This document shows, piece by piece, positions 1,385 through 57,085 of a stretch of DNA of 64,000 bases. Numbering within the stretch: the first letter of the stretch is position 1; every line of letters begins with the position of its first letter. A model generated the notes under the pieces. It ran no database searches. It was not told the DNA's origin and saw nothing but the letters and a program-made list of their open reading frames with translations. A program made the position numbers and the translations under genes. The DNA is taken from NCBI GenBank assembly GCA_044238435.1, contig JBIIDH010000001.1, positions 5,101 through 69,100 on the forward strand, read 5' to 3'. The stretch comes from Ilumatobacteraceae bacterium. GTDB taxonomy: Bacteria; Actinomycetota; Acidimicrobiia; Acidimicrobiales; Ilumatobacteraceae.

Positions 1385-1392
1385 CGTGGCTC

Positions 1393-5214: not shown

Positions 5215-5253
5215 CGACAGTACACCTTTGGACAGATTCCTTGTACGAACGTT

Positions 5254-9130: not shown

Positions 9131-9168
9131 CGCTGGAGGTCAGATGGAGGTGAGTGGAGCCGGCAGCG

Positions 9169-10956: not shown

Positions 10957-11075
10957 GATCCCCCCAGAGGTCGTTGGTCGGTGCAGTATTGCACACACCC
11001 GATGTGTTGGTTCAGAGCAACCCCAGTTGCGATGAAACTCCTGACGTGCCCCGCGGCAGACAGTACCATCCGCCC

Positions 11076-13021: not shown

Positions 13022-13029
13022 TCAGGCGC
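13014..13029. other. perfect 16-bp palindrome GCGCCTGATCAGGCGC containing both stop codons of the convergent Rieske and DMGO genes
   Basis: Seen in the sequence. The genes abut with a zero-length spacer (TGA/TCA). Confidence 0.3.
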
Positions 13030-15481: not shown

Positions 15482-15539
15482 GCGGTACTCCTGGACTGAA
15501 AGGTTGCTGAGCTGGAATGGAACGAGTGAGAGGGACCGG

Positions 15540-17156
15540 TCAGTAGTCGGTGGCGACGCCGCCCTCGGCGACGCGCCGGGCGAGGAACTCGTCGAGTTCC
15601 TGGCGGCGGTCGGCGGGCATGGCGGGCGGCTCGTAGGCGTCGAGGAACTTGGCGGCGAGCTGCTTGGCCTTGCCGTCGGCGGTGGGCGAGCCGGCTTCCT
15701 CCCAGCTCTCGTAGTTGCGCCAGTCGCTGAGGAACGGTCGATAGAAGGCGTCGCGGAACCGGGCCTGAGTGTGCGCCGTACCGAAGAAGTGGCCACCCGG
15801 CCCGACCTCTTCGATGGTGTCGATGGCGAGCGTGTCGGCATCGACGATGACGGGCTCCATCATCTTGGTGACCATCTGCAACAGGTCGGCGTCGAGCACC
15901 ATCTTCTCGAGGCTCGAGTGGAGGCCACCCTCCATCCAGCCAGCGCCGTGCATCATGAAGTTCACGCCACCCATGACGGCGCCCCACAGCGCGAACACGC
16001 TTTCGTAGGCGGCCTGGGCGTCGAGCGCGTTGGCTGCACAGACGTTCGAGCTGCGGTACGGGATGCCGTAGCGGCGGGCCAACTGGCCGCCGATCATGGC
16101 GGTGCGCACGTACTCGGGGGTGCCGAACGCCGGCGCGCCGCTCTGCATGTCGACGTTCGAGGTGAACCCTCCGTACATCGCCGGCGCGCCAGGGTTGACG
16201 ATCTGCAGGAAGGCGATACCCGCCAGGGCTTCGGCGTTCTGCTGCGCCAGCGCGCCGGCCAGCGTGATGGGAGCCATGGCGCCGGCGAGGGTGAACGGGG
16301 TGACCACGACGGGCTGGTTGTGGAGGGCGAACTCGATCATGCCCTGTGCCATCGGGATGTCGAGACGCAGCGGCGAGTTGGTGTTCACCACGGTGATGAG
16401 TGACGGCTCGCGGTCGATGGTGGCCTGGTCGACACCGCGGGCGATGCGCACCATCTCGATGCAGTCGATGTTGCGCTGGCGACCGAGGCTGTAGCAGTAC
16501 ATGCCCTTGTCGGTCATCGTGAGGATGTCGTGCGAGGCCTCGAGATGGCGTACCGAGTGGTGGATGTCGATCGGTTCCACCGGGTAGCCCGGCACGTAGT
16601 GGATGACGTTCAGCATCTGCGCCAGCTTCAGCAGGTCGCGGAAGCCTTCGCGGTCGCCGGTGCGGCGCACGCCGTTGCGGTCGATGTAGTGCGGGGTGCT
16701 GGCCACCGTGCCGAACGTGAGCCAGCGGCCGCCGATGCGCACGTTGTGGTCGGGGTTCCAGCTGTGCAGGGTGTACTCGCTGGGTGCCGTGGTGATGGCC
16801 GACTCGATCAGTTCACGGGGGAAGCGCACCCGGTGGTTGCTCTCGTCGACATCGGCGCCGGCAGCCTTCATGATGCTGCGCGACTCGGGGCACATGAACT
16901 CCATGCCGATGCGTTCGAGGATGGTGAGCGAGGCCTGGTGGATCGACTCGAGCTCGTCGGCCGACACCACCTCGGTGTGGTTGAGTCGCATCTGCGGCTG
17001 CTTGAAGGGCAACTGCTCGGGCAGCCGGGAACGGGTGCCCTCGGCGCGGTCGCGGCCACGCCGACGAGCGGGAGTTCCGCCGTCTGGTCCGCTGGTGGGG
17101 CCGGTGTCGGAAGCGGTGTCGGTCACGAGATCCGACACTACACCGCCCGACGGCAT
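15540..17156 (-). CDS. MttB-superfamily (trimethylamine methyltransferase family) methyltransferase, non-pyrrolysine type
   Basis: 538 aa, uninterrupted with no in-frame amber. It aligns along its full length with the second copy at 26624..28138 (…[21 protein letters not shown]…[18 protein letters not shown]…[19 protein letters not shown]…GPGGHFF…). AAGGA lies 4 nt upstream. It ends 58 nt upstream of the DMGO-like gene. Confidence 0.85.
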
Positions 17157-17221
17157 TCCTTGTACGGTTGTCTCGCGAATGGCCGAGCCGGCCGCGTGTC
17201 GTGGAGGAGAGGGGCCGAGCC

Positions 17222-18391
17222 GTGAGCACGATCGTCGCCATCGACATCACCCACCACCAACTGGTGCTCGACCCACCGTTCCCGGCGTCGTGGGATCCGC
17301 AGCCCCGCACGCGGTTCCCCGCCACGATCGTGCGGGTCCGCGACAGCGAGGGTCGGGTGGGCGTGGGCTCGGGCGATGCGATGTACGGCTTCGCCGACTA
17401 CGCCCGCTGGTTCCTGGGCGAGGACCCGCTCGATCTCCAGCAGCACGCGGCCTGCCTGGCCAACGTGGGCTTCCATGCCGGTCGCCCGTGGCCGCTCGAC
17501 GTGGCCCTGTGGGATCTCGCCGGTCAGATCCGCGAGCAGCCGGTGTGGTCGATGCTCGGTGGACGATCGCCCCGGCTGCGGGTATACGCCTCCACCGCAG
17601 TGCACAGGCCGGTGGCGGCGATGGTGGAGGTGGCCCGACGACTCGTCGACGAGGGCTTCGACGCGATGAAGGTGCGGTTCGGTCGAGCGTCGCTGGCCGA
17701 CGACCTGGCCGTCGTGCGCGCGGTTCGAGATGCGGTCGGGCTGGCGCTGACCCTCATGGTCGACTGCAACCAGGGGTGGCGCATGCCGTGGGACACCCAG
17801 GCCCCCTGGCATCTCGACCAGGCCACCGAGGTGGCGCTGGCCCTGCAGCGCGAGGGCGTGTACTGGATGGAGGAACCGCTGCACCGCGGCGACTACGGCG
17901 CGATGAGCGAACTGCGGCGGCGGGTGCGCGAGGCGGCCATCGGTGAGGCACCGATGCTGATCGCCGGCGGCGAGATGACACGTGAGCCGTACGAGTTCGA
18001 CGAGTTGCTGCGACGCGATTGCCTCGACGTGTTCCAGCCGGACGTGGTGTGCACGCAGGGGTTCGCTGCACTCGCCTCGCTGGGGCGCCGCGTGGTGGCC
18101 GACGGCAAGGTGTTCACGCCGCACACGTGGGGTAACGGCATCGGGGTGCTGGCCAACCTCCATCTGACGGCCGGGTCGGTGGGCCACGAGGGGTCGCGGT
18201 GGGTGGAGTTCCCGCTCGACCCACCGGAATGGAGTATCGAGCGACGCGACTACCCGCTCGAATCTCCGATCACTGCAGAGCGCGGTGAACAGGGCATGTG
18301 GGTCGAGCTCGGCGAGCGACCCGGTCTCGGCATCGACCTCGACGAACAGCGCCTCGCGGCCACCGCCAGTGCCTCGGCCACCTTCTCCTGA
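17222..18391 (+). CDS. enolase-superfamily enzyme, mandelate racemase/muconate-lactonizing-enzyme subgroup (racemase/epimerase/dehydratase)
   Basis: GTG start [12 protein letters not shown] preceded by GGAGGAGAGGGG. It has N-terminal capping and C-terminal barrel features (…MVDCNQGW…EEP…DV…). It is divergent from the MttB gene. Confidence 0.8.
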
Positions 18392-18417
18392 CCGTCGGCC
18401 TGGTTAGCCTCCACACC

Positions 18418-19584
18418 GTGTCCACCATCGCCAGCATCGTCGCCACCCCGGTCAACGTGCCGATGGTGGCGCCCTACCGGTTCTCGTTCGGCACTCTCGC
18501 CAGCTTCACCACCACCATCGTCGAGGTCACCGACAGTGACGGGGTCACCGGCATCGGCGAGACCCCGCACGGCGACCTCTCGGGCCTGATCTCCTCGATG
18601 GGCGCGCAGCTCGCCGGTTGCTCGGTCGACGACCTGAACGGGTGCGAAGCCCGGTGTGTGGCCCGCACCGGCTTCAGCCTGTGGGACGACTCGGCCAACG
18701 AGCGGCGGGCGTTCGGCGGCATCGAGATGGCGCTGTGGGACCTGCGGGCCAAGCGTGCCGGTGTTCCGCTGGTCGACCTGCTCGGTGGCCGAGTGCGCGA
18801 CAGCGTGGCGTTCACCGAGTACTTCGCGCTGCGCGTGGGCCGTGAGGAGACACCCGTCGACGTGGTGCGCTACTGCGAGCAGATCGCCGCCGATTTCGAC
18901 GCCCGGGTGTTCGAGGGCAAGCTCGGCGTGCTCGACGTGGAGACCGAGATGGCCATGGTGGCCGATCTGGTGCGGGCGCTCGGGCCGGGCCGGGTGCAGC
19001 GCCTCGATGCCAACGGCGTGTACACCGTGCCCACCGCTCGTCAGGTGGTGCGACGGCTCGCCGATCTGGGAGTGGGCTGGCTGGAAGACCCGTGCCGTAC
19101 CCACGACGAGACGGCCCGTCTACGCGCCGACGGGGCGCCGATCTCGTTCAGCACCCACCAGGTCGACCTCGCCCGCGCCGCCCGCGATGGCGTGCCCGAT
19201 GCCTTCTGCATCGACGCCACCGAGATGGGCGGCCTGCGACGCACGCAGGACTTCCTGCGCGCCTGCGCTGCGCTCGGCATCGACTTCTGGTGCTACAGCG
19301 GCGACGCCGGCGTGATGACCGCCGCCTACCTGCACCTCACCGCGGCGGAGGCATCGATGATCCGTCCGCACCAGAGCCTGTTCCGGTTCACCGCCGACGT
19401 GGTCGTCGAGCAGGGTCACTACTCGCCGAGGGGTGGTGTGCTGCCGGTGCCCGAGGCACCCGGCCTCGGTGTCACCATCGATCGGGCGGCCTTGGCTCGG
19501 CTCCATGAACGCTTCCGTGCCGAAGGGTCGATGGCGGCATCCGATGGCGACGGCGGGTACCGCCAGCAGTTCCGTCAGCAGTAG
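18418..19584 (+). CDS. enolase-superfamily enzyme (second tandem paralog)
   Basis: GTG start VSTIASIVATPVNVP, the same VSTI start as its neighbour. It has MR/MLE-like features (…LDANGVYT…EDP…). It lies 27 nt after the first copy. Confidence 0.8.
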   Translation: MSTIASIVATPVNVPMVAPYRFSFGTLASFTTTIVEVTDSDGVTGIGETPHGDLSGLISSMGAQLAGCSVDDLNGCEARCVARTGFSLWDDSANERRAFGGIEMALWDLRAKRAGVPLVDLLGGRVRDSVAFTEYFALRVGREETPVDVVRYCEQIAADFDARVFEGKLGVLDVETEMAMVADLVRALGPGRVQRLDANGVYTVPTARQVVRRLADLGVGWLEDPCRTHDETARLRADGAPISFSTHQVDLARAARDGVPDAFCIDATEMGGLRRTQDFLRACAALGIDFWCYSGDAGVMTAAYLHLTAAEASMIRPHQSLFRFTADVVVEQGHYSPRGGVLPVPEAPGLGVTIDRAALARLHERFRAEGSMAASDGDGGYRQQFRQQ

Positions 19585-19616
19585 CAGCACCCCAGCGCAG
19601 GGGTAGTGTTCCGGCC

Positions 19617-20231
19617 GTGGCGCGGACACCCGATCTCGAGCGTCGGCAGGAACTGCTCGACCGGATCGTCGATCACCTCGCCGAACACGGCCTCGCGCAG
19701 ACGACGTTGCGGCCACTCGCCGCCTCGCTCGGTGTCAGCATCAACCGCCTCGTGCACCATTTCGGTACCAAGGAGGAGCTGCTCGCCACGGCGTTGCGCC
19801 GCGGTGTCGAGCGGCAGAACGAGATCGAGGACGCGTGGATCGAGCGCGACCCGTCGATCTCGATGGCCGACATCTACCGCAAGTGGTGGAAGTGGATGAA
19901 CGCCAAACCGCAGAACCTGGCGCTCGTTCGACTCGGGTACGAGGCGGCTGCACTGAACACCACCGTCACCGGTCTCCCCGGCGACCTGCGCGCCGACCAG
20001 TTGGCGGTGTGGCGGCACTTCGTGGAGGAGAAGCTGCACCGCGAGGGCCTGCCCATGCCGCTCGCCCAGAGCGAGGCATCCATCCAGAAGGCCATCTTCA
20101 CCGGGTTGATCATCGACCTCGTGGCGTCGGGCGATCGCAAGCGACTCGGTGCAGCACTCGAGGTGTCGCTGCAGCGGCTCGAGGCGCTCATCGCCGCGGC
20201 CCGCGCCTCCACCGAACTGTCCGACACATAG
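19617..20231 (+). CDS. TetR-family transcriptional regulator
   Basis: 204 aa with an N-terminal HTH (LAEHGLAQTTLRPLAASLGVSINRLVHHFGTKEELL). GTG start. Confidence 0.8.
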   Translation: MARTPDLERRQELLDRIVDHLAEHGLAQTTLRPLAASLGVSINRLVHHFGTKEELLATALRRGVERQNEIEDAWIERDPSISMADIYRKWWKWMNAKPQNLALVRLGYEAAALNTTVTGLPGDLRADQLAVWRHFVEEKLHREGLPMPLAQSEASIQKAIFTGLIIDLVASGDRKRLGAALEVSLQRLEALIAAARASTELSDT

Positions 20232-20296
20232 CACCCTTGGTATGACGGTCAGACCACGAGTAGTGTTCGCCGACACCTGCCGAACAAGGGAGTGAC

Positions 20297-20824
20297 ATGA
20301 CGTACCCGAACATCCTGGTCTTCGTCGACTTTCCGACCGACGATGTGAACGCCGCTCGCGCCTTCTACGCCGAGGTCTTCAACTGGGAGGTCGAGGACCG
20401 CATCAAGGACCTCTTCGCCCGTATCGTCCCGGGCCAGAACTTCAAGCTCGACGACGGCACCCAGGGGCCCACGGGCAACCTGCACATGGGCATCGCCAAC
20501 GCGGCCGACATGCGGCCGCGACCCGACTACGTGTCGGGCGAGCCCACCACGCTGAACCGCACCGGCCGTGGTGCTCGCGCCTGGATCCTGGTCAGCGAGG
20601 ACGACTCGTTCGAGCGCATCCTCGAGGCAGCGGTGCGCCTCGGTGGCACCGAACTGTGGCGCAACCACTTCTGGACCGAGTTCGGCGGCGCCAACGCCTC
20701 GTTCATAGACCCGTGGGGCAACCAGATCATGCTGTGGCAGCACCTGCCCGATGTGGAGCGCGACGAGGAGAGCCACCAGGTGGTGGGCGAACACAAGATC
20801 CCCGAGGGCTGGACCGTCGAGTGA
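20297..20824 (+). CDS. VOC-family (glyoxalase/bleomycin-resistance/dioxygenase-like) protein
   Basis: 175 aa with glyoxalase-like beta-alpha-beta-beta-beta modules (…AARAFYAEVFNWEV… / …FIDPWGNQIMLWQ). AAGGGAG lies upstream of the ATG. Confidence 0.6.
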   Translation: MTYPNILVFVDFPTDDVNAARAFYAEVFNWEVEDRIKDLFARIVPGQNFKLDDGTQGPTGNLHMGIANAADMRPRPDYVSGEPTTLNRTGRGARAWILVSEDDSFERILEAAVRLGGTELWRNHFWTEFGGANASFIDPWGNQIMLWQHLPDVERDEESHQVVGEHKIPEGWTVE

Positions 20825-20846
20825 CCGCCCGGCGCGGAGCCGACGC

Positions 20847-22094
20847 TCAGTCGATGGTGCCGTAGGCGCCCTGATCGCCTGAGGCGGCGGCTGCGGTCAC
20901 CTCGTCGATCGACGCGCCGAGATCGGCGAGGAATGACTCCACCTTGTCGGCGTGCACGGCATTCACGGTGAGGTGCAGCGACGGGGGAGGGCCCTGCCGG
21001 TCGACGTACCAGCCGCGCCGCCACAGCGCGTCGGCGACCGCGTACACATCGAGTGCCGATGGGTCGGCAGCGCCGAACGACAGCAGCATCGCATCGGGTT
21101 CGGCGCGCAGCACCAGTTCGGGCATCGACCGCACGGCGGCAGCGATCTGCTCGGTGGCGCGTCGGGCGTCGGCCGTGAGGCGGAGGTACCCCTCGTCGCC
21201 CAGGTGGTGCATCACCGCCCACGCCGCGGCCATCGGACCGCCACCCTTGGTGCCCAGCACACCCGACGAGCCGTACATGCCGCCGAGCCAGTTGTCGGTG
21301 ACGAAGGTCTGGTAGGCACGCAGTCGCTTCGAGCGGTGCATGATCACCGACGCACCCTTCGCGGTGTAGCCGAACTTGTGCAGGTCGACCGAGATGCTGG
21401 TCACCCCCGGCACCGTGAAGTTCCACGGGGCGATGTCGTAGCCCAGCCGGGCGAGATACGTCAGCGTCACGCCGCCCATGCAGGCGTCGACGTGGCAGTT
21501 GATGTCGCGCTCGGCGGCCAGGGCGGCGATGTCGGCGATGGGGTCGACCACACCCTGCGGGTACTGGGGTGCCGAGCCCACCACCAGCACGGTGTCGTCG
21601 TCGATGGCGTCGGCCATCGCGTCTGCATCGGCTCGCCAGTCGTCGCGCACGGCAACCCGTCGGCTCTCGAGGCCGAAGTAGTAGCACCCTTTCTCGAACG
21701 CCGCGTGGGCACTGGTGGGCAGCACCACGTTCGGCCGGGCAACGCCTCGCTCGGCGCGGCCCCGCTCGCGTGCCGCCTTCACCGCCATGAGAATGCTCTC
21801 GGTGCCGCCACTCGTCATGAATCCGGCACCATCGGGGCCCGCCTGCAGCCAGTCGGCCACGATTCCCACCACCTCGGCCTGGATGGTGCGCAGGCTGGGG
21901 AACGCATCGGTGTTGAGGGCGTTGTCGGTGCTGAAGCGGCGGTGCGCCTCGTCGGCGACGGCCGACACCTCGGGCCCCGCGTAGTAGGCGAGCGTGAACG
22001 CCCGCCCGTCGCGCCACCGGACGTCGTGCTCCTTCAGCGCGTCGAGCCGGGCGAGCACCTGATCGGCAGGAACGCCGGAGGAGGGGAGTGTCAT
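20847..22094 (-). CDS. PLP-dependent group II decarboxylase / sphingosine-1-phosphate-lyase-like enzyme (start uncertain)
   Basis: 415 aa with a PLP-lysine context SISVDLHKFGYTAKGASV and a …MTSGGTESILMAV… motif. Its ATG overlaps the divergent aminotransferase ATG. Confidence 0.7.
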   Translation of the reverse strand: MTLPSSGVPADQVLARLDALKEHDVRWRDGRAFTLAYYAGPEVSAVADEAHRRFSTDNALNTDAFPSLRTIQAEVVGIVADWLQAGPDGAGFMTSGGTESILMAVKAARERGRAERGVARPNVVLPTSAHAAFEKGCYYFGLESRRVAVRDDWRADADAMADAIDDDTVLVVGSAPQYPQGVVDPIADIAALAAERDINCHVDACMGGVTLTYLARLGYDIAPWNFTVPGVTSISVDLHKFGYTAKGASVIMHRSKRLRAYQTFVTDNWLGGMYGSSGVLGTKGGGPMAAAWAVMHHLGDEGYLRLTADARRATEQIAAAVRSMPELVLRAEPDAMLLSFGAADPSALDVYAVADALWRRGWYVDRQGPPPSLHLTVNAVHADKVESFLADLGASIDEVTAAAASGDQGAYGTID

Positions 22095-23301
22095 GACGGC
22101 AACGTACCCGAGCAGCCCACTCGGGCCTGCCTACGCTCGGTTGGTGCGCACCGACGGCTTCCTCCTGAACCCCGACATCACGTTCCTGAACCACGGTTCG
22201 TTCGGAGCGTGCCCGGAGCCGGTGTTCGCGGCGTACCAGCGCCTGCAGCTCGAGATGGAACGCCAGCCGGTCGAGTGGTTGGCCCGTCGCTCCGACGACC
22301 TGCTGGGCGCTGCCCGGGCGCGCCTGGCCGCCTACCTCGGTGCGCAGGCCGACGACCTGGTGTACGTGCCCAACCCCACCACGGCGGTGAACATCGTGGC
22401 GCGCAGCCTGCGCCTGCAGCCGGGCGACGAGGTGCTCACCACCGACCACGAGTACGGTGCGATGAACCGCACCTGGCGGGTGATCTGCGAGCAGGCCGGG
22501 GCGCGCTACGTGCAGGTGCCCGTCCCCGTACCGGTCTCCACGCACGCCGACTTCGTCGAGCGACTGTGGGCCCAGGTCACCGAGCGCACCAAGGTGATCT
22601 TCCTCAGCCACATCACCAGCGACACCGCGCTCGTGTTCCCGGCCGACGAGATCTGCCGCCGGGCCAGGGCCGCCGGCATCTTCACCATCGTCGACGGGGC
22701 GCACGTGCCGGCCCACATCCCGCTGCACCTCGGCACCCTCGACGCCGACATCTACACCGGCGCCTGCCACAAGTGGCTGTGCGCCCCGAAGGGCTCGGCG
22801 TTCCTGTGGGCCCGCCGCGACGTGCAGCCGATGCTGCGTCCGCTGGTGGTGAGTTGGGGATGGGAGCCCGCCGTGCCCGGTCCCTCGCCGTTCATCGACC
22901 ATCACCAGTGGCAGGGCACCCGCGACCTGAGCGCGTTCCTGGCCACACCTGCGGCCATCGACTACGAGGAAGCCAACGACTGGGACGGTGTGCGCGAGCG
23001 CTGCCACGCCGCTGCCGTCGAGGCGAGCGCACTGCTGCACGGCGTCACCGGGTGCGAACCGTTCAGCCCCGAGCACACCGGCGACCAGCGTTCGCCCATC
23101 TGGTACGGGCAGATGGTGGCCATCCGCCTGCCCGACCACGTCGATGTGGCCGACCTGAAGCGGCGCCTGTACGACGACCACCGCATCGAGGTGCCCGTCT
23201 ACCGCTGGGCCGACATCCCCATCCTGCGCGTGTCGATCCAGATGTACAACACCCCCGACGACGTCGACCGCCTCGCCGCCGCCCTCCGCACGCTCCTCTG
23301 A
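22093..23301 (+). CDS. class V aminotransferase-fold PLP-dependent enzyme (cysteine desulfurase / isopenicillin-N-epimerase-like)
   Basis: 402 aa, …FLNHGSFGACPE…, with PLP Lys in GACHKWLCAPKGSAF. A strong SD GGAGGAGGGGAG lies 6 nt upstream. Confidence 0.75.
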   Translation: MTATYPSSPLGPAYARLVRTDGFLLNPDITFLNHGSFGACPEPVFAAYQRLQLEMERQPVEWLARRSDDLLGAARARLAAYLGAQADDLVYVPNPTTAVNIVARSLRLQPGDEVLTTDHEYGAMNRTWRVICEQAGARYVQVPVPVPVSTHADFVERLWAQVTERTKVIFLSHITSDTALVFPADEICRRARAAGIFTIVDGAHVPAHIPLHLGTLDADIYTGACHKWLCAPKGSAFLWARRDVQPMLRPLVVSWGWEPAVPGPSPFIDHHQWQGTRDLSAFLATPAAIDYEEANDWDGVRERCHAAAVEASALLHGVTGCEPFSPEHTGDQRSPIWYGQMVAIRLPDHVDVADLKRRLYDDHRIEVPVYRWADIPILRVSIQMYNTPDDVDRLAAALRTLL

Positions 23302-23369
23302 CCCGCCACCACCCGCCGCGATGAGCACCCTGCGCAGCAGGTGCGCATGTTGCTCATCGCGGTGGCGGG
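23302..23369. other. large imperfect hairpin (9-bp plus 10-bp stem with a 7-nt bulge, 23-nt loop containing two TGCGCA palindromes) between the aminotransferase and amidohydrolase genes
   Basis: The arms cccgccacc/ggtggcggg and gcgatgagca/tgctcatcgc are seen directly. The element starts 1 nt after the aminotransferase stop. It is a candidate intrinsic terminator or attenuator, or a REP-like element. Confidence 0.4.
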
Positions 23370-23392
23370 GGAGGGCGGCTAACGTCGGCGCG

Positions 23393-24265
23393 ATGGGGAT
23401 GCCGACCGACATCGGGGTGATCGACCTCATGCTGGGCATCCCCGAACCGGGCATGCGCGCCCACTGGTACGACTTCTTGAAGCCGAACCTGCGCGACACC
23501 GAGAGCCAGTCGATGGCGATGCCGGCGCAGTACCTGTTCAAGGACATCCCCGACGACCCGAGCGATGCCGACATGATCGCCTGGACCGTCGACCAGATGA
23601 ACGGCCACGGCATCGCCAAGGCGCTCATCGGCGTCGACCTCGCCGGCGGCATCCAGAACGACGCCATCGTCCGACACCCCGACCGTTTTTTCGGCTGCCT
23701 GCACGTCGATCCCAACGGCGGTATGGCCGTGGTGCGCGCCATCCAGGAGGCGCACGACCGGCTCGGCATCAAGGGCGTGTCGCTGTTCCCCTCGGGCTGC
23801 AACCCGCCGGTGCCCATCGACGACAAGCGCATGTACCCGGTGTACGCGAAGTGCGCCGAACTCGGCATCGCCGTGCTGTGCTGCGTGGGCGTGCCCGGGC
23901 CGCGGCTGCCGATGGCGGCCCAGCACGTCGAACGCATCGACGAGGTGTGCTGGTACTTCCCCGAGCTCACCTTCGTGATGCGCCACGGCGGCGAACCCTG
24001 GGTCGACCTCGCCGTGAAGCTGCTGCTGAAGTGGCCGAACCTCTACTACAGCACGTCGGCGTTCACGCCCCGGCGCTACCCGCAGGAGATCATCGACTTC
24101 GCCAACACCCGGGGGAGCGACAAGGTGATGTACGCCGGCTACTTCCCGATGGGCCTCAGCCTCGGCCGCATCTTCCGCGAACTGCCGAACGTGCCGCTGC
24201 GCGACGAGGTGTGGCCGAAGTTCCTGCGCGACAACGCCGTGCGCGTGTTCGGACTCGACCGATGA
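23393..24265 (+). CDS. amidohydrolase-2 / TIM-barrel metal-dependent hydrolase family protein (ACMSD-like)
   Basis: Start at MGMPTDIGVIDLMLGIPE. It has a C-terminal …DKVMYAGYFPMG… motif. Its stop overlaps the next ATG (ATGA). An alternative upstream ATG at 23321 lies inside a large hairpin. Confidence 0.6.
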   Translation: MGMPTDIGVIDLMLGIPEPGMRAHWYDFLKPNLRDTESQSMAMPAQYLFKDIPDDPSDADMIAWTVDQMNGHGIAKALIGVDLAGGIQNDAIVRHPDRFFGCLHVDPNGGMAVVRAIQEAHDRLGIKGVSLFPSGCNPPVPIDDKRMYPVYAKCAELGIAVLCCVGVPGPRLPMAAQHVERIDEVCWYFPELTFVMRHGGEPWVDLAVKLLLKWPNLYYSTSAFTPRRYPQEIIDFANTRGSDKVMYAGYFPMGLSLGRIFRELPNVPLRDEVWPKFLRDNAVRVFGLDR

Positions 24266-25239
24266 GTGCACCCCTGCAGCAGCGACCCACCAGCGAACGC
24301 TGGCCGTGGCCCATCCCGTTCGGCTGGTTCGCCCTCGGCTGGTCGCACGAACTGACCGAGCAACAGGTGCTGCCGCGGCACGTGTTCGGCGCCGACACCG
24401 TGCTGTGGCGCGACGCCGACGGAACCGCCCACCTGCACGACGCCTACTGCCCCCACCTCGGCGCGCACCTCGGCGTGGGCGGCAGCGTCGACGGATGCAC
24501 CATCGTGTGCCCGTTCCACGCCTGGGCGTTCGATGCCGAAGGCCGCAACACGATCATCCCCTACAGCGACCGCACCAACGCCAAGGCCCGCCTGCGCACC
24601 TACCCGGTGGTCGAGCGCAACGGGCTGATCATGGCCTGGTACCACCCGCACGAGGCCGAGCCGCAGTGGGAGATCCCCGAGGTGCCCGAGTTCGGCACCA
24701 CAGGTGTGGGGGAGGAGTTCAGCGACCCGTTCACCCGCCAGTTCGAGATCGCCACGGCATGGCAGGAGATGGCCGAGAACGGCGTCGACTCGGCCCACTT
24801 CCGCTACGTGCACGGTACTGCCGAGGTGCCCGTGCTCGAGAGCTACGAGACCGAGGGCCATCGCTCGCGGATGCGGTCGAAGCAGTTCTTCGTCACGCCT
24901 CGGGGCACCACCGAGGGCCGCATCGACAGCGACGGGTGGGGCCCGGGCTTCTCGGTGGTGCGTTTCAGCGGCATCGTCGAGACCCTGCTGCTGGGCTGTG
25001 CCACCCCGGTGGAACGCGACCGGTGCGAGATGCGGTTCACGTTCTGCGTGCGTCGTTTCGCCGACGACCGGGTCACGAGCAGTGTGGGCGAGGCCTTCGT
25101 GAACGAGGTGTCGCGGCAACTGCTGGAAGACAAGCCGATCTGGGAGCACAAGACCTACATCGACCGGCCAGCACTCGCCGACACCGACGGACCCTTCGCC
25201 GCCTTCCGCCGCTGGGCCAGCCGGTTCTACGCGGCCTGA
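24262..25239 (+). CDS. Rieske [2Fe-2S] non-heme iron oxygenase, KshA/phthalate-family-like, alpha-only
   Basis: 325 aa from MSAPLQQ. Rieske motif CPHLGAHLG…x17…CPFHAW. Mononuclear-iron motif ENGVDSAHFRYVHG (D-x2-H-x4-H). Confidence 0.8.
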   Translation: MSAPLQQRPTSERWPWPIPFGWFALGWSHELTEQQVLPRHVFGADTVLWRDADGTAHLHDAYCPHLGAHLGVGGSVDGCTIVCPFHAWAFDAEGRNTIIPYSDRTNAKARLRTYPVVERNGLIMAWYHPHEAEPQWEIPEVPEFGTTGVGEEFSDPFTRQFEIATAWQEMAENGVDSAHFRYVHGTAEVPVLESYETEGHRSRMRSKQFFVTPRGTTEGRIDSDGWGPGFSVVRFSGIVETLLLGCATPVERDRCEMRFTFCVRRFADDRVTSSVGEAFVNEVSRQLLEDKPIWEHKTYIDRPALADTDGPFAAFRRWASRFYAA

Positions 25240-25260
25240 GCAGCGCGGATCACCCGTCGA

Positions 25261-26091
25261 ATGGCCATCCTCCTCGCCGCCGTCGCCGCCGTGCTGCTGG
25301 GCGCCTCCGACTTCTTCGCCGCCCGCTCGGCGCGCCATGCCGCCAGCCTCACGGTCACCCGCACGGTGGTGCTCACCTCGGCCGTGCTGTCGCCGCTGCT
25401 GGTGCTGGTGGTCGACTCGCGGTGGATCGGCCGCGACATGCTGCTGGGCGCGCTGGCCGGGCTGTCGATGATCACCGGGCTGATGCTGCTCTACCACGGC
25501 TACAAGGTGTCGCGCATCGGCATCGTTGCTCCCATCTCGTCGGTGCTGCTGGCTGCCGTACCGGTCGTCACCGATCTGGTGCGCGGCGAGCGCCCCAGCA
25601 CCCTCGGCACGGTCGGCATCGCCATCGGCCTCGTCGCCGTGGTGCTGACCAGCTATCAGCCGGGCGGCGAGGGCAGCGTGCGCCAGGGCGCCATCCTCGG
25701 GGTCACCTCGGGCATCGGGTTCGGCATCGCCTTCACGCTGATGGGCGAGGTGAGCGCTGAGGCCGGCCTGGCGCCCGTGTTCGCTCAACGTGGCACCGGA
25801 CTGGTGCTGCTGTGCGTGATCGCCCTGTTCCGGGCCGAGCCGTTCCTGGTGCAGCACCCGCTCGGCCGACGCATGGCGATGATCAGCGGCGTGTTCGGCG
25901 TGGTGGCCATCGGCTCGCTGCAGTTGGCGTTCCGCGAGGGGGCATCGGGCCCGGTGTCGGTGGCCGGCTCGCAGTTCGCCACCGTCGCCGTCATCCTCTC
26001 GGTGCTGTTCAACCGCGAGCGGATGCGCTGGTGGCAGGGCATCGGGGTGGGCGCCACCGCCGTGGGTGTCGCCCTGATGGCCCTCGGCTGA
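25261..26091 (+). CDS. EamA/DMT-family transporter
   Basis: 276 aa with about 10 predicted TM helices and two-repeat EamA topology. Confidence 0.7.
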   Translation: MAILLAAVAAVLLGASDFFAARSARHAASLTVTRTVVLTSAVLSPLLVLVVDSRWIGRDMLLGALAGLSMITGLMLLYHGYKVSRIGIVAPISSVLLAAVPVVTDLVRGERPSTLGTVGIAIGLVAVVLTSYQPGGEGSVRQGAILGVTSGIGFGIAFTLMGEVSAEAGLAPVFAQRGTGLVLLCVIALFRAEPFLVQHPLGRRMAMISGVFGVVAIGSLQLAFREGASGPVSVAGSQFATVAVILSVLFNRERMRWWQGIGVGATAVGVALMALG

Positions 26092-26116
26092 CGGCCCCAC
26101 ACCGGTCGGCGCCGAT

Positions 26117-26158
26117 CTTGTTCGAGTTTCCGTTGTGTACGACCGAAACTCGAACAAG
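26117..26158. promoter_or_regulatory. perfect 14-bp inverted repeat CTTGTTCGAGTTTC…GAAACTCGAACAAG separated by 14 nt; candidate operator or structured element
   Basis: Seen directly in the sequence. It is a locally AT-richer site between EamA and the FKBP/MttB2 genes with no downstream T-tract. Confidence 0.4.
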
Positions 26159-26235
26159 TTCGGGTGTGGCTACCGCCGCAAGCCAGCGTCGACCCGCCAG
26201 GGACTGGCCGACCGGACAGCGGCTAGGGTCGAGAC

Positions 26236-26613
26236 ATGAGCGATCGCACCAAGCCTTCCATCACCATTCCCGCCGGCGACCCGCCCGCCGACCTGCTGAT
26301 CGACGACGAGATCGTCGGCGACGGCGACGAGGCCACCATCGGCAAGCGGGTCACCGTGCACTACGCCGGTGTGGCGTGGAGCACAGGCAGCGAGTTCGAC
26401 GCCAGCTGGAACCGCGGCGAGACGTTCAGCTTCCGCCTCGGCGCCCGCGAAGTGATCGAGGGCTGGGACCGCGGCGTGAAGGGGATGAAGGTGGGTGGCC
26501 GTCGGCGCCTCACCATCCCGGCCGACCTGGGCTACGGCAGCAGGGGAGCGGGCGGGGTGATCAAGGGCGGCGAGACCCTCGTGTTCGTCGTCGACCTCGT
26601 CTCGGTGCGCTGA
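26236..26613 (+). CDS. FKBP-type peptidyl-prolyl cis-trans isomerase
   Basis: 125 aa. …VTVHYAGVAWSTGSEFDASWNRGETFSFRLGAREVIEGWDRGVKGMKVGGRRRLTIPADLGYG… is the canonical FKBP fold signature. Confidence 0.9.
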   Translation: MSDRTKPSITIPAGDPPADLLIDDEIVGDGDEATIGKRVTVHYAGVAWSTGSEFDASWNRGETFSFRLGAREVIEGWDRGVKGMKVGGRRRLTIPADLGYGSRGAGGVIKGGETLVFVVDLVSVR

Positions 26614-26623
26614 GCAACCGTCG

Positions 26624-28138
26624 GTGAGCCGCCTCAACCGCACCCGTACTCGGCGCGAGGCGACCGGCGCCACGCCACAGCCGTTCACCCCGCTGCGCAA
26701 CCCGTACCGTCCGGTGGAGGTGCTGTCGGCCGACCAGGTCGAGCACATCCACCGCTCGTCGCTGCAACTGCTGGCCACCACCGGGATGCGCATCCTCGAT
26801 GCACAGGCGCGGCGCTACTTCGCCGACGCCGGGTGCGTGGTCGACGACCTGATCGTGCGGTTCGACCCCGAGATGGTGGAGGCCACCGTCGCCCTCGCTC
26901 CTGCCGAGTTCACCCTGCGGGCCCGGAACCCGCAGCACTCGATCACGCTCGGCGGCAACCATGTGGCGTTCAGTGCCGTGGGAGGCCCCGCCTTCACCCA
27001 CGACCTCGACCGCGGGCGTCGCGGCGGCTCGGCCGCCGAACAGCGCGAGTACCTGCAGCTCATCCAGATGCTGGGCGTGGTGCACCAAGAGGGTGGCGGC
27101 CCGTTCGAGGCACTCGACCTGCCCGCCGAGACCCGGCACCTCGACCTCTACCTGAGCCTCATCCGCACCCTCGACAAGAACTGGCAGGCCGTTGCGCTGG
27201 GCCGCGAGCGCGCGGCCGACGCCATCGACATGGCCGCCATCGCCCTCGGCACCGACCGCGACGGTCTGGCTGCCATGCCCGCCGTGATGGCGGTCATCAA
27301 CACCAACACCCCGCTCACGCTCGACATCCCGATGGCCGAGGGGCTCATCGAACTCGCGGGCGCCGGACAGGCGGTGTGCGTCACCCCGTTCACGCTCGCC
27401 GGCGCCATGGCCCCGGCCACCATCGCCGGCGCGCTGGTGCTCCAGAACGCCGAAGCGCTGGCCGGTATCACCCTCACCCAACTGGTCAGGCCCGGCGCAC
27501 CAGCCATCTACGGCTCGTTCACGTCGAACGTCGACATGCGCAGCGGCTCGCCGGCCTTCGGCACTCCTGAGTTCACCCGTGCCGCGCAGGCGAGCGGCCA
27601 ACTGGCCCGCCGCTACGGGCTGCCGTTCCGGTCGTCGAACACCACGGCCTCGAACGCCGTCGACGCCCAGGCCGCCTACGAGAGCGGCATGTCGCTGTGG
27701 GGCGCCGTGATGGGCGGCGCCCACCTGGTGAACCACGCCGCAGGCTGGTTGGAGGGAGGGCTCACGGCGTCGTTCGAGAAGCTGATCATCGACGCCGAGA
27801 TGCTGCAGATGATGGCCGAGTACCTGAAGCCCATCGAGGTGAACGACGCCGAGATCGGCCTCGACGCCATCGCAGCCGTGGGGCCCGGCGGGCACTTCTT
27901 CGCCTCACCCCACACGATGGAGCGCTACGAGCGGGCGTTCTACTCGCCACTCGTGTCGGACTGGCGCAACTTCGAGACCTGGCAGGAGTCAGGCTCGATC
28001 GACGCCACCCACCGCGCCAACCGCATCTGGAAGCAGTTGCTCGACCAGTACGAGGCGCCCGTGCTCGATCCAGCCATCGACGAAGCGCTCGTCGACTTCG
28101 TGGTCCGCCGCCGGGCGGCGCTCGACTCGGTGGCCTGA
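26624..28138 (+). CDS. MttB-superfamily methyltransferase, non-pyrrolysine type (second paralog)
   Basis: 504 aa, uninterrupted. It shares blocks with the first copy ([64 protein letters not shown]). GTG start 10 nt after the FKBP stop. Confidence 0.85.
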   Translation: MSRLNRTRTRREATGATPQPFTPLRNPYRPVEVLSADQVEHIHRSSLQLLATTGMRILDAQARRYFADAGCVVDDLIVRFDPEMVEATVALAPAEFTLRARNPQHSITLGGNHVAFSAVGGPAFTHDLDRGRRGGSAAEQREYLQLIQMLGVVHQEGGGPFEALDLPAETRHLDLYLSLIRTLDKNWQAVALGRERAADAIDMAAIALGTDRDGLAAMPAVMAVINTNTPLTLDIPMAEGLIELAGAGQAVCVTPFTLAGAMAPATIAGALVLQNAEALAGITLTQLVRPGAPAIYGSFTSNVDMRSGSPAFGTPEFTRAAQASGQLARRYGLPFRSSNTTASNAVDAQAAYESGMSLWGAVMGGAHLVNHAAGWLEGGLTASFEKLIIDAEMLQMMAEYLKPIEVNDAEIGLDAIAAVGPGGHFFASPHTMERYERAFYSPLVSDWRNFETWQESGSIDATHRANRIWKQLLDQYEAPVLDPAIDEALVDFVVRRRAALDSVA

Positions 28139-28154
28139 GCCCAGGTCGTCCTGC

Positions 28155-30023
28155 TCAGTCAGGCAGGGCGCGGTACCCGAGGCGCTCGCGCAGGTCGCCG
28201 AACTGCAACAGCGAGATGATGCCGGCCGTGGGCACCAGCAGCAGACCCACCACACCGTCGATGAGGTTCACCACCGTGAACGACCAGTCGGTGAGGAGCA
28301 GGGCCAGCACACCGCACGCCGCCGGGACGACGGTGGCCAACGTGTAGGCCGCGCCGCCGAGGGCGAGCGAGCGCAAGCGGCGGCGCAGGGTGAGGCGACG
28401 GCTGAGCCAGAGGGGAGCGGAGTCGACCAGTGCCGCAGGTACGGCAACGGCCCACATGGCGAGCAACACCAGACCCAGGGGGAGCAGCACGGTGGTGGCG
28501 GTGAGGCCGGTCAGCCCTGCTGAGAGGAACAGTGAGATGAGGACGACGCGTCGCCGTTGCCACACCTCCGACACCACGAGGCGCCAGGAGACAGGCTCGT
28601 CGGAGTCGATGTGCAGCGTGGCGATCATCGCCGCAACGCTCACCGTCGCCGTCGCCGGGCCGATGAACAGCGAGCCGAGCAGGAGGGCGACGAATCCCCC
28701 CGATGCCGAGTCGCGGTCGGCGACATCGGCGACGTCGCCGAGTTCGGTGAAGTGGAGCACGACGGTCTGGACGATCGAAGCGAGAAGGCCGGCGAGGGGG
28801 AGCAGCGCCCCGATCCGCATGTACAGCAGCGGTCGGCGCCGAACCGTCGACACCGCAGCGCGGATGATCTGACCCCCGGCGCGTCGGGCGCGAACCGGCC
28901 GGGTGAACACAGGCCGCCAGCGCGTGCTGCGCAGCAACACCGTGAGCACCAGCAGCAGACCCACCAGGAACGCACCGGTGAGCAGCGGTTGCTGCAGCAG
29001 CCGGAACAGGACCTGCGAGGCATAACCGGCGACAGCACAGAACGCGTCGGTGACCTTCGTGCCCTCCGCCGGCAGATTGGCCGCACCGCGGCGGCCTTCC
29101 TCCTCCACCCAGCGCACCGGGTTGGTCCACTGCGTCTTCATGTTCGGACCCGTGGGCCCGTTGTTGAACGACGGCTGCCTCTCGCCCCAGTGGCCACGGA
29201 ACCCGGCCCAGGTGGGCAGGGACTCGTCGTCGAGCATGATCACGTCGGGCGACACATCCTCCGACGGCGCCCGGGTGTCGTCGCAGCCGAACCCGCTCTG
29301 CGCGCTCTTGCCGAACCAGCGCTCGGCTTGGAAGTACGAGGCATGGCTACCGGCCGCCACGTACACGACGGGTCGAGTGCCGTCGACCACCTGCAGCACG
29401 TCGTCGCTCCAGTCCGACACCTCAGCTCCCTCGTGCTGTGCGAACGCCACCAGGCGGGGCTCGGTGCCGATGGCCGAGCGGGCGTCGGGGGCGTCGAAGA
29501 ACAACTGGATCATCTCCCAGTCGCCCTCGTGGCGGTCGTTCCAGTCGTTGTAGAGGTAGAAGAACCAGTACTGCAGGACCAGCGTCTCGGGATCGTCGGG
29601 GTCGGAGAACACGTGGGCGTAGATCACCGGCGGGGTGCGCCACTGGTCGAACAGCTTCTCGTACGAGCAGCCGGGCGACAGGGCGTTGCCGGGGATGTCG
29701 AGGTACCAGTCGCCGGCGCTGTCGGCGAGGTCGGCCTCGGTGGGGGCCTTCACCGTGCCGTCGGGCTTGCGGAGCACCACGCCTTCTCGACCGAACAGGG
29801 CGTCGACCGCCATCACCCGGTACGGCTCGCCCGGGCCGCAGGTGACGGGTTGCTGCTGGACCCGCAGGAGGGGAGTGTGGCGCGCGGCCAGCTCGGCCGC
29901 TGCCTCGTCGGCGCTCTCGACGCGCGGCGCAGTTGACGAGGAAGCAGCCGTTGGAACCAACAGCGCTGCGAGTGCACCCATCACCAGTCCCAGTACCGAG
30001 ATCGTGCGCAGCCGCCGAGTCAT
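28155..30023 (-). CDS. hypothetical exported protein: signal peptide, extracytoplasmic domain of about 320 aa, C-terminal polytopic membrane domain of about 270 aa
   Basis: N-terminus MTRRLRTISVLGLVMGALAALLVPTAASSS. The conserved-looking core is YWFFYLYNDWNDRHEGDWEMIQ. The C-terminal third is hydrophobic with multiple helices. Confidence 0.5.
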   Translation of the reverse strand: MTRRLRTISVLGLVMGALAALLVPTAASSSTAPRVESADEAAAELAARHTPLLRVQQQPVTCGPGEPYRVMAVDALFGREGVVLRKPDGTVKAPTEADLADSAGDWYLDIPGNALSPGCSYEKLFDQWRTPPVIYAHVFSDPDDPETLVLQYWFFYLYNDWNDRHEGDWEMIQLFFDAPDARSAIGTEPRLVAFAQHEGAEVSDWSDDVLQVVDGTRPVVYVAAGSHASYFQAERWFGKSAQSGFGCDDTRAPSEDVSPDVIMLDDESLPTWAGFRGHWGERQPSFNNGPTGPNMKTQWTNPVRWVEEEGRRGAANLPAEGTKVTDAFCAVAGYASQVLFRLLQQPLLTGAFLVGLLLVLTVLLRSTRWRPVFTRPVRARRAGGQIIRAAVSTVRRRPLLYMRIGALLPLAGLLASIVQTVVLHFTELGDVADVADRDSASGGFVALLLGSLFIGPATATVSVAAMIATLHIDSDEPVSWRLVVSEVWQRRRVVLISLFLSAGLTGLTATTVLLPLGLVLLAMWAVAVPAALVDSAPLWLSRRLTLRRRLRSLALGGAAYTLATVVPAACGVLALLLTDWSFTVVNLIDGVVGLLLVPTAGIISLLQFGDLRERLGYRALPD

Positions 30024-30045
30024 CGCACCGATGGTAGATCGCGTG

Positions 30046-30083
30046 TGTGAGCGGGAGAGCGTGGTGCCGGGGTTCCGCTCACA
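30046..30083. other. hairpin: 9-bp stem TGTGAGCGG/CCGCTCACA with a 20-nt loop
   Basis: Seen in the sequence between two minus-strand genes. It is a possible terminator of the Cys-rich gene or a 5'-UTR element of the membrane-protein gene. Confidence 0.25.
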
Positions 30084-30163
30084 GACGCTGCGGTGGTGTC
30101 AGGTTGAGTTGACATAACGAGGATTATGGGCGTTGTCACTGGAACCGGCGGGCCAAGGGGGCG

Positions 30164-30529
30164 TCAGCCCGATGCGGGTAGACGGCGCCCCGCCAGGGGT
30201 TCTGCGGCGTCGAGCAGCCAGCGCAGCGCATCCAGCGCCTCGGCCGCCGTGAGGTCGTGCTCGAGATCGCGCCGGGTGTCGACCACTGCGCACTGCAGCA
30301 CGTACAGGTCGTCGTACAGCGCGTCGAGTTCGCTGCGCGCCATCACCAGCTCGCCCTCGCTGAGCGCCAGCTCCCGAGCCCGCTGGCGCGACACCCAGTC
30401 CCATTGGCGACACCGTTGCGAGCAGAACGCCCGTGGACGCCCCGGGCCCTGCCGGGTCGCGAGGACGATGCGGCACCACCGGCAGCGTCGCTCCTCCGGC
30501 GACGACGGGTCATCGACTGATTTCGTCAT
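30164..30529 (-). CDS. hypothetical Cys-rich small protein (CxxC…CxxxC zinc-ribbon-like N-terminus, helical C-terminus)
   Basis: 121 aa. MTKSVDDPSSPEERRCRWCRIV…FCSQRCRQWDW…. The start codon is embedded in a perfect 18-bp palindrome. Confidence 0.45.
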   Translation of the reverse strand: MTKSVDDPSSPEERRCRWCRIVLATRQGPGRPRAFCSQRCRQWDWVSRQRARELALSEGELVMARSELDALYDDLYVLQCAVVDTRRDLEHDLTAAEALDALRWLLDAAEPLAGRRLPASG

Positions 30530-33220: not shown

Positions 33221-34057
33221 TCAGCGGTCGGTGAGGACTTCGCGCCAGACGGCCTCGAGCCGGTCGAGGCGTTCGGTGGCGTGGGCCCGCAGCCGGTCGG
33301 CCACGGCCGAGACGAACAGGTCGAACACCGCCAGCGTGCCGGTGTGGCTGTCGAACGGTCCGCTGCCGGCGGCAGCGAGCACCACCGTCACATCGGCCGT
33401 CTGTGCGAGCGGCGACAGCACGCTGTCGGTGAGCGCCACCGACCACACCCCCGCCGCCCGGGCCGTCTGCGCGACGTCGACCACCCACCGCTCGTAGCGG
33501 CGCAGGTCGAGCGCCACCAGCACGTCGCCGGCACGAAGCAGCGCAGCCTGACGGCGCACGGCGATGGGGTTGCCGTCGATGAGCGCGACGTCATCGCGGA
33601 GCGACCCGAGATCGCCGACGAACTGCAGCGCCACACCGCGCGAGGCATCGCCCGACAGCACGAAGATGCGCGCCTCGCGTTCGGCGAGGTGGTCGACCAC
33701 TGCGGCGAGCGTGTCGGCCGATACCGCCCCGAGCGAGGCGTGCACATTGGCCACCTCGAGCTGCTGATGACGGGTGGCGAGGCCGGCACCCGCTGGCTCG
33801 CGGATGCGTTCGGCGGCCGGACGCAACTGGGCGGCCAGTTCGGCCTGCACCGCAGCCTGGAGCGCCGTGAACCCGTCGTACCCGAGTTTGGTGGACAGGC
33901 GCACCACTGTCGCTGCGCCCGAACCCGATGCCGTGGCCAGTTCGGCGACGGTGCCGAAGGCCACCAGTTGGGGCCGGGCCAGCACCACTTCGGCCACGCG
34001 TCGTTCTGCTGTGGTGAGCGAAGCCCCCTGAGCACCGATTCGATCCGCCACCAGCAT
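33221..34057 (-). CDS. MurR/RpiR-family transcriptional regulator (HTH plus SIS domain)
   Basis: 278 aa from MLVADRIGAQGASLTTAERRVAEVVLARPQLVAFGTVAELA (HTH_6). SIS-like C-terminus (…IFVLSGDASRG…). Divergent from the hydroxylase gene. Confidence 0.75.
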   Translation of the reverse strand: MLVADRIGAQGASLTTAERRVAEVVLARPQLVAFGTVAELATASGSGAATVVRLSTKLGYDGFTALQAAVQAELAAQLRPAAERIREPAGAGLATRHQQLEVANVHASLGAVSADTLAAVVDHLAEREARIFVLSGDASRGVALQFVGDLGSLRDDVALIDGNPIAVRRQAALLRAGDVLVALDLRRYERWVVDVAQTARAAGVWSVALTDSVLSPLAQTADVTVVLAAAGSGPFDSHTGTLAVFDLFVSAVADRLRAHATERLDRLEAVWREVLTDR

Positions 34058-34165
34058 CGCCGCGGAGTGTAGTCGCAGGCCGCGGAGTGTGTTCGTTCCG
34101 GTCCGCCTTCCACGGGAACGGTGACCAAGTGGAACAGTTCTTCCAGCCTGTGTAGTGTCTGGAAC

Positions 34166-35155: not shown

Positions 35156-35211
35156 CACCCGGGCACCGAACCCGCAGGGGGCGCTGAACCAGCCGAGGCG
35201 CAGGGCAGACT

Positions 35212-57081: not shown

Positions 57082-57085
57082 GATG

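Follow-up and report, generated by a model that had tools for sequence, protein, structure and literature searches.

The window considered here is a 64-kb stretch of DNA (about 69% G+C) from an Ilumatobacteraceae bacterium, and the subject is a string of genes at 20847-28138 within it that encodes two pyridoxal phosphate (PLP) enzymes, an amidohydrolase, a Rieske oxygenase, an EamA-type permease, an FKBP-type peptidyl-prolyl isomerase and the second of two MttB-type methyltransferases, MttB2 (the other, MttB1, is encoded further upstream). Four independent transcription units lying side by side in a conserved stretch of chromosome, with the MttB2 gene appended by a deletion, is what this string probably amounts to. 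An original prediction made from the sequence had instead seen in it a single pathway of transamination, hydrolysis, oxygenation, methyl transfer and export, perhaps for a proline-derived betaine.

Genes were called from G+C content at third codon positions and their products searched against Pfam and NCBIfam profiles. Every gene named in the original prediction was found by Pfam, with E values from 1e-16 to 1e-192, and its domain assignments, those of the second MttB paralogue and the KshA-like Rieske protein included, were right. The genes are:

20847-22094, minus strand: group II PLP decarboxylase (PF00282, 2.7e-16)
22144-23301, plus strand: class-V-fold PLP enzyme, 385 amino acids (PF00266, 4.4e-33); the longest open reading frame (ORF) begins at 22093
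23393-24265, plus strand: Amidohydro_2 protein, 290 amino acids (PF04909, 4e-26)
24262-25239, plus strand: Rieske oxygenase of KshA/VanA type, 325 amino acids (PF00355, 2e-17, and PF19298, KshA_C, 6e-36)
25261-26091, plus strand: EamA/DMT permease, 276 amino acids (PF00892, 6e-16)
26236-26613, plus strand: FKBP-type peptidyl-prolyl isomerase, 125 amino acids (PF00254, FKBP_C, 3.8e-31)
26624-28138, plus strand: MttB2, 504 amino acids, GTG start, a single uninterrupted ORF (PF06253, MTTB, 1.7e-192, 640 bits)

The co-directional genes number six and not the seven that had been counted, the decarboxylase gene being divergent from them as had also been recognized, and six such genes in a row is nothing unusual for a bacterial genome. 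Two ATGA or near overlaps had been reported. That of the amidohydrolase and Rieske genes (4 nt, 24262-24265) is genuine and the only true one, whereas the CATGA between the decarboxylase and class-V genes is spurious, the class-V ORF having been taken as too long. Relatives of the class-V protein align only from about residue 21 of the longest ORF and, because a conserved −10 box points to GTG 22144 as its start, the divergent spacer is 49 nt. The amidohydrolase start is ATG 23393, in agreement with homologues and the JGI gene call, and the spacer between class-V and amidohydrolase genes is therefore 91 nt and not 19. The remaining spacers in the window are 21 nt (Rieske-EamA), 144 nt (EamA-FKBP) and 10 nt (FKBP-MttB2), the last being real as predicted.

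In high-GC Actinobacteria leaderless genes are recognizable by a TANNNT box some 12 nt ahead of the start codon (PMC3160421; see also PMC3898074). A scan of 20000-30500 for E. coli-type promoters and terminators gave nothing, its model being unsuited to this GC content, and for that reason a leaderless-type test was adopted, with TANNNT 5-8 nt before the start codon being sought across related loci. Such boxes precede 0.5% of start-like triplets in these loci as background, and 14 of the 57 gene starts in the window, typically those of first genes (mpa, dop, tatA, thyX and a TetR gene). An Rfam scan of 20000-30500 at E≤1 gave no match. The boxes within the string are:

22101-22106, minus strand: decarboxylase −10 box TACGTT, 6 nt before the ATG; box in 23 of 24 loci
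22132-22137, plus strand: class-V −10 box TACGCT, 6 nt before GTG 22144; box in 17 of 26 loci
23380-23385, plus strand: amidohydrolase −10 box TAACGT, 7 nt before ATG 23393; box in 23 of 27 loci
26224-26229, plus strand: FKBP −10 box TAGGGT, 6 nt before the ATG; box in 30 of 30 loci, irrespective of the gene upstream

The first two lie back-to-back within the divergent spacer (22095-22143). Neither the Rieske start (0 of 27 loci) nor that of EamA (0 of 28) is preceded by a box. For MttB2, 15 of the 18 unfused loci show a box; of the 11 in which it is fused to FKBP, the window among them, none does. The simplest reading of these signatures would have the decarboxylase gene, the class-V gene, the amidohydrolase-Rieske-EamA genes and the FKBP gene as separate units, the last with MttB2 joined on by deletion. 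As far as sequence can show, what had been proposed as one co-regulated string consists of separate transcription units.

Comparison with relatives bears on the same point. An alignment of the Rieske protein was scanned against one genome per species, yielding 80 loci with 10-kb flanks onto which the window proteins were mapped by tblastn and our own ORF calls; look-ups anchored on MttB2 added further loci, and about 30 related loci were compared (loci are given L numbers below). The homologues come from metagenome-assembled genomes (MAGs) named Ilumatobacteraceae, Acidimicrobiaceae or Acidimicrobiales, the window itself being from freshwater Ilumatobacteraceae-like Acidimicrobiia, and near-identical JGI lake contigs carry the same genes. 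Exact look-up of the MttB2 protein sequence returned no record, and that of the Rieske protein returned the near-identical JGI contigs only. The order decarboxylase (on the minus strand), class-V, amidohydrolase, Rieske, EamA, FKBP and then, at varying distance, MttB2 recurs in 21 loci whose Rieske proteins are 69-98% identical. With the order kept in about 20 species-level relatives this is therefore no one-off juxtaposition, so that the genome-neighbourhood comparison recommended in the original prediction favoured it as to gene order, but not as to MttB2, which in most relatives is set apart from FKBP.

Within that order MttB2, the class-V gene, the decarboxylase gene and the amidohydrolase-Rieske pair are present or missing independently of one another. 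The amidohydrolase-Rieske pair is missing from L086, L087-L089 and L092, with class-V, EamA and FKBP still present in L087-L089 and L092. L086 has class-V, 4HBT and FKBP genes followed by RDD and LysM-NlpC genes on the minus strand and then MttB, all without amidohydrolase, Rieske, EamA or decarboxylase. The class-V gene is missing from L010, L020 and L085, and in L085 amidohydrolase, Rieske and EamA are present without either PLP gene. FKBP is kept in L019 and L023 with MttB2 absent at that position, and in L090, L093 and L094 orthologues of MttB2 (70-76% identical) lie in unrelated contexts lacking FKBP. Beyond the family-level clade Rieske identity falls to 58-64%. There, in 59 more distant Acidimicrobiia loci, the amidohydrolase-Rieske pair is all that is left of the string (in about 10 of them), and an MttB gene within 10 kb was found in none. 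Modules present or absent independently of one another therefore make the string a mosaic of separately gained and lost parts.

The closest sub-clade (L004-L007, L009, L011 and the P0127 contig) alone has FKBP and MttB2 10-19 nt apart. In L012, L015-L018, L020, L021, L024, L084-L089 and L092 the gap is 543-2175 nt and holds one or two ORFs on the opposite strand which, where checked with Pfam, are RDD, LysM-NlpC/P60 or Metal_hydrol genes. MttB2 would then abut FKBP in the window lineage because a recent deletion removed the intervening genes, and the adjacency, which had been taken as a meaningful oddity, appears to be a lineage-specific deletion product. Upstream of the stand-alone MttB2 −10 box, L016, L018, L021, L024, L084 and L086 share a conserved motif, GGTCA(C/G)...GAAAAATTGTCCAGTA, which may be a regulator binding site lost in the window lineage.

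From the gene identities, arrangements, conservation of promoter signals and active-site residues that were observed, the following picture of transcription, substrates and partner proteins can be inferred. On the minus strand a leaderless gene for the PLP decarboxylase would form the first unit, and a leaderless monocistronic gene for the class-V-fold enzyme, which is not a cysteine desulfurase, the second. The third would be an amidohydrolase-2/Rieske/EamA operon, read from a leaderless promoter at the amidohydrolase gene, whose products most likely import or export a small carboxylated molecule, oxygenate it by hydroxylation or demethylation, and convert it further. A housekeeping FKBP gene with its own leaderless promoter would be the fourth. 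Ancestrally MttB2 would have been a fifth, monocistronic and leaderless, with opposite-strand cell-wall genes between it and FKBP. In the window lineage a deletion of about 1-2 kb would have taken out the cell-wall genes together with the MttB2 promoter, leaving MttB2 at 10 nt from the FKBP stop, where it is presumably transcribed by read-through from the promoter of FKBP. The enzyme itself most likely binds a carboxylate-bearing methylated (quaternary) amine and methylates Co(I) in a corrinoid protein whose gene lies elsewhere in the genome, from which the methyl group would pass to tetrahydrofolate.

Several considerations weigh against this account. The TANNNT reading relies on a sequence signature whose validation comes from other Actinobacteria and not from Acidimicrobiia, and the class-V box was present in just 17 of the 26 loci by automatic start search. 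Read-through between units is possible, the EamA-FKBP spacers being merely 11-41 nt in several relatives. That the junction arose by deletion, and not insertion, is parsimony over loci ranked by protein identity with no rooted tree. The MtgC/MtgD-type partners of MttB2 are presumed to lie elsewhere in the genome, outside the window. Finally, the order class-V, amidohydrolase, Rieske, EamA, FKBP seems steadier than its flanks in about 20 species-level MAGs, and there could be selection for proximity.

The amidohydrolase-Rieske-EamA operon is the only robust multi-gene unit of the string, and it is conserved, the spacer between Rieske and EamA genes being −40 to 25 nt in every relative. The best solved relatives of the Rieske protein are KshA structures (6e-41), and both its Rieske ligands (C63/H65/C83/H86) and those of its mononuclear iron (D176/H179/H184/D290) are invariant in 18 sequences. 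It shares with KshA and the class IA Rieske oxygenases (VanA, DdmC, NdmA and SxtT) the CxH...CxxH and D-x2-H-x4-H...D motifs and the KshA_C helix-grip domain. It differs from KshA in being shorter (325 amino acids against about 390) and in its pairing, which is with genes for an amidohydrolase-2 protein and a DMT permease. All NCBIfam models score below their cut-offs. The GbcA model scores 18.6 bits, over the Rieske domain only, where 670 is required, and the catalytic domain is KshA_C and not the PF00848 of the GbcA/Stc2-type demethylases. The string's Rieske protein is thus not of the type of the betaine demethylases GbcA, Stc2 and CntA. A KshA-like role in steroid breakdown was also considered and rejected: there is neither a KshB-type reductase nor any steroid-catabolic gene in the window or in the string-bearing relatives, and it is only distant relatives that have thiolase-like and DUF35 neighbours, and those on the opposite strand. 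In those distant loci (L026-L080, from Microthrixaceae and Iamiaceae; for instance L072, 11957-15282) the Rieske orthologues, 58-64% identical, are solitary. Their flanking genes, on the opposite strand, are two of thiolase-like (PF22691) and two of DUF35/ChsH2_C OB-fold type, and a ferredoxin-reductase-like gene lies within a few genes, a layout reminiscent of steroid side-chain genes.

The amidohydrolase is harder to place. Its family profile matched, among Protein Data Bank (PDB) entries, BB4693 of Bordetella bronchiseptica (3irs; 2.6e-24) and then LigW and LigJ. The Foldseek ranking for its AF2 model (pLDDT 84) agrees, giving BB4693, LigW, gamma-resorcylate decarboxylase, LigJ and ACMSD, at TM 0.6-0.7 and 13-18% identity to characterized enzymes. 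BB4693 (3IRS/3K4W), the best match in both sequence and fold, is itself uncharacterized, and a literature search found no paper on it. The LigW, LigJ and gamma-resorcylate-decarboxylase types, non-oxidative aromatic-acid decarboxylases or hydratases, have the PF04909 TIM barrel in common with the window protein, but where LigW, ACMSD and LigJ have HxH/ExH metal ligands in strand 1 it has D11-L-M13. The ligand set of those enzymes also includes a His in strand 6 and an Asp in strand 8, and in the window protein H198 and D243 are conserved, the conserved histidines being two only, H95 and H198. A 63%-identical orthologue from Myxococcota has no Rieske neighbour. Our best guess, held with low confidence, is that the products of the operon oxygenate a small compound that is transported and bears a carboxylate, and also convert it by a non-redox step. 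No literature on this gene combination in Acidimicrobiia was found.

Could the string nevertheless hold something new? It is unlikely that either of two things is so: that the operon is a widespread two-enzyme oxygenation system of freshwater Acidimicrobiia with new chemistry (the PF04909 protein might, for example, modify or decarboxylate what the Rieske enzyme produces, or have an AibH2-like redox role), or that in the window lineage FKBP-MttB2 has been drawn into the same methylated-substrate response.

Taken on its own, the AibH2-like role is unlikely. The amidohydrolase would then be the oxygenase, a dinuclear (Mn/Fe) PF04909 monooxygenase resembling AibH2 or PtmU3, with the Rieske protein as electron carrier and EamA as the substrate permease, a pattern proposed for 555 uncharacterized PF04909 proteins. 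Among AibH2-like PF04909 genes 90% have an adjacent Rieske gene and 40% a permease (Powell et al. 2023, PMC10029006). The window has exactly this co-occurrence of PF04909, Rieske and small-molecule permease genes, with a 4-nt overlap besides. Membership of that group would require more than 24% identity to AibH2 together with all six metal ligands. Against the reading, H95 and H198 are the only histidines conserved here, with D-L-M in place of the N-terminal HxH. The AibH1H2 structures (8FUL-8FUO) are absent both from the profile matches at E≤0.01 and from the top 50 Foldseek matches. The Rieske partner is a complete oxygenase with its mononuclear-iron motif invariant and not a small ferredoxin, and the Myxococcota orthologue dispenses with such a neighbour. 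Neither sequence nor fold, then, supports an AibH2-like reading.

MttB2 is an ordinary stand-alone non-pyrrolysine paralogue of the MttB superfamily. The PF06253 TIM-barrel domain is full length (profile positions 7-498 of 500), there is no in-frame UAG (pyrrolysine) codon, and the model for pyrrolysine-type trimethylamine methyltransferases, TIGR02369, gives 321 bits, below its cut-off of 525. The protein is 48% identical to MttB1 and about equally similar to Sinorhizobium meliloti 4YYC (1e-103) and Desulfitobacterium hafniense MtgB (7e-101) among PDB entries. In MtgB glycine betaine is liganded by Y97, F356, R312 and H348, with R312 pairing with the substrate carboxylate and being kept in all characterized members that act on acidic quaternary amines (PMC13080624). 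MttB2 keeps the equivalents of R312 (PFRS aligned to PSRS) and of the second carboxylate ligand H348 (VNHAAG aligned to VLHTAG). With the non-pyrrolysine systems (MtgB, PDB 2QNE/9YCE; Ruegeria pomeroyi MtgB1/MtgB2; 4YYC) it also has the full-length domain and the want of UAG in common. The cation-pi aromatic pair Y97/F356 is another matter: both positions are Gly in MttB2, as they are in 4YYC, and Ala and Gly in MttB1, so that specificity for glycine betaine is not indicated; MttB2 has here the AGWLEGGL motif that it shares with 4YYC and MttB1. By its active-site residues MttB2 would suit a carboxylate-bearing methylated amine other than glycine betaine, or one bound differently from it.

No corrinoid (B12-binding) protein and no methylcorrinoid:tetrahydrofolate methyltransferase (PF02310, PF02607, PF00809) is found among the genes of the window. 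In aerobic Ruegeria pfam06253 proteins are served by unlinked MtgC and MtgD, with up to seven scattered paralogues (PMC12478193), and for this reason a lone MttB gene with no corrinoid gene nearby is a known pattern, one in which MttB2 resembles its counterparts in aerobic Roseobacters. What sets it apart from known MttB systems is its fusion, in the window lineage, behind FKBP and lacking a promoter signal of its own.

The two PLP enzymes can be assigned less exactly than their folds. The decarboxylase is an MfnA/GAD-like group II PLP-dependent enzyme, its gene being probably its own transcription unit; it scores 218 bits against TIGR03812, below the cut-off of 299. The class-V protein is SufS/Egt2/C-DES-like, with all NCBIfam scores far below cut-off (114 bits against 475 for the SufS model). 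In the PDB alignment with SufS the PLP lysine (HK) is kept and the HHC loop is HRI, the catalytic Cys having been replaced by Ile, on which ground the label of cysteine desulfurase was rejected. The label of transaminase is unproven, all NCBIfam scores being below cut-off, and the transamination step that had been ascribed to this protein is not one that its sequence allows to be called.

Upstream of the string, 1148-20231 is a betaine-type catabolic island with sarcosine-oxidase-like SoxB, SoxD and SoxA genes and an opp-type ABC transporter, together with a DMGDH-like DAO and GCV_T fusion, MttB1 (15540-17012), two enolase-superfamily genes and a TetR regulator. Its Rieske gene is GbcA-like:

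11876-13021, GbcA-like Rieske gene in the upstream island (NCBIfam, 1.6e-42)

The adjoining gene at 11076-11879 has no match in Pfam or NCBIfam. The HpbD enolase-superfamily pathway for proline and hydroxyproline betaine has reportedly been described by Zhao et al. (2013) and Kumar et al. (2014). The enolase 2 of the island matches HpbD structures at only 1e-22, behind many other matches, and an HpbD-type proline betaine reading of the enolase genes was rejected on the weakness of that similarity. As regards the known betaine pathways, those of GbcA and HpbD, the GbcA-like Rieske and the two enolase-superfamily genes sit upstream beside MttB1 and outside the string.

Against this background it is quite improbable that the six co-directional genes and the decarboxylase gene constitute one catabolic pathway, possibly for a proline-derived betaine, in which MttB2 would be a demethylase and FKBP an accessory. 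Co-directionality, short spacers, an order conserved in the species-level relatives, the island with its GbcA-like Rieske, DMGDH-like, MttB1, enolase and transporter genes just upstream, and the carboxylate-binding Arg and His of MttB2 all lend that view some appeal. Set against it are four conserved promoter signals for seven genes, those before the class-V, amidohydrolase and FKBP genes lying inside the supposed operon; the opposite-strand genes between FKBP and MttB2 in most relatives, where MttB2 has its own promoter signal; and modules that are present or absent independently. It is in the closest relatives alone (L004-L009) that the island lies next to the string, and the GbcA score of the string's Rieske protein is far below cut-off. 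Nor do enolases and FKBP together hint at proline-derived betaines, as had been suggested, given the weak HpbD match and the derived adjacency of FKBP. Very improbable, lastly, is an adaptive FKBP-MttB2 fusion, whether with FKBP as a dedicated folding helper of MttB2 or with their co-expression selected, since the short junction, though kept in all genomes of its sub-clade, is a derived arrangement by parsimony, FKBP stays where MttB2 is missing, MttB2 orthologues occur without FKBP, and the FKBP sequence (74-98% identical across relatives and generally among the best conserved of the region) and promoter are conserved regardless of neighbours. The reading as four units with MttB2 appended is thus the one retained.

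Other features of the region deserve mention. The EamA-FKBP spacer holds, in L001-L006 only and not in L007-L011, an insertion of about 120 nt (26100-26215) containing the following:

26112-26163, near-perfect inverted repeat with 25-nt arms

Its predicted RNA hairpin (−74.5 kcal/mol, z −4.76) has no T tract, no second copy in the window and no Rfam match. It is possibly terminator-like, with an operator or a remnant of a small mobile element as other candidates. Converging on MttB2 with a 16-nt spacer is a gene (28155-30023) for a predicted membrane protein of 622 amino acids that matches only Vps62, and faintly; a leaderless-type −10 box of its own precedes the gene, which is found in closer relatives only. 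Further on come an RpiR gene (33221-33997) and, at 34121-36279, genes for a TauD-family protein and then a GntG/threonine-aldolase-like PLP enzyme, the RpiR and TauD pair being conserved downstream of MttB2 in most relatives. The best matches of the TauD-family protein are amino-acid beta-hydroxylases (GntD, 1e-59; clavaminate synthase; VioC), and the hydroxylase and aldolase logic presumably resembles the trimethyllysine hydroxylase and hydroxytrimethyllysine aldolase steps of carnitine biosynthesis. From 40 kb onward the genes are housekeeping ones (ThyX, Tat, signal peptidase, PafA/Dop, proteasome and Mpa). Among them a 531-residue ThyX-like protein (44186-45781) has two Thy1 (PF02511) matches at about twice the usual ThyX length and may be a tandem-domain form, and 5-oxoprolinase-type genes (CT_A_B, CT_C_D and LamB/YcsF; 55631-57808) lie between two Pup-ligase genes beside those for the proteasome subunits.

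No new betaine pathway is supported, and MttB2 belongs to a known superfamily. An attractive pathway that lacks support is thereby set aside, and the string illustrates how tight spacing in one genome can mislead, a deletion having, on the reading favoured here, put an MttB paralogue behind the promoter of a housekeeping FKBP gene. In uncultured Acidimicrobiia the bounds of transcription units can be drawn from TANNNT boxes conserved at leaderless distance. What novelty is left concerns the amidohydrolase-Rieske-EamA operon and the substrate acted on by the MttB2 clade, a clade abundant in lake Acidimicrobiia whose members do without the aromatic pair for glycine betaine.

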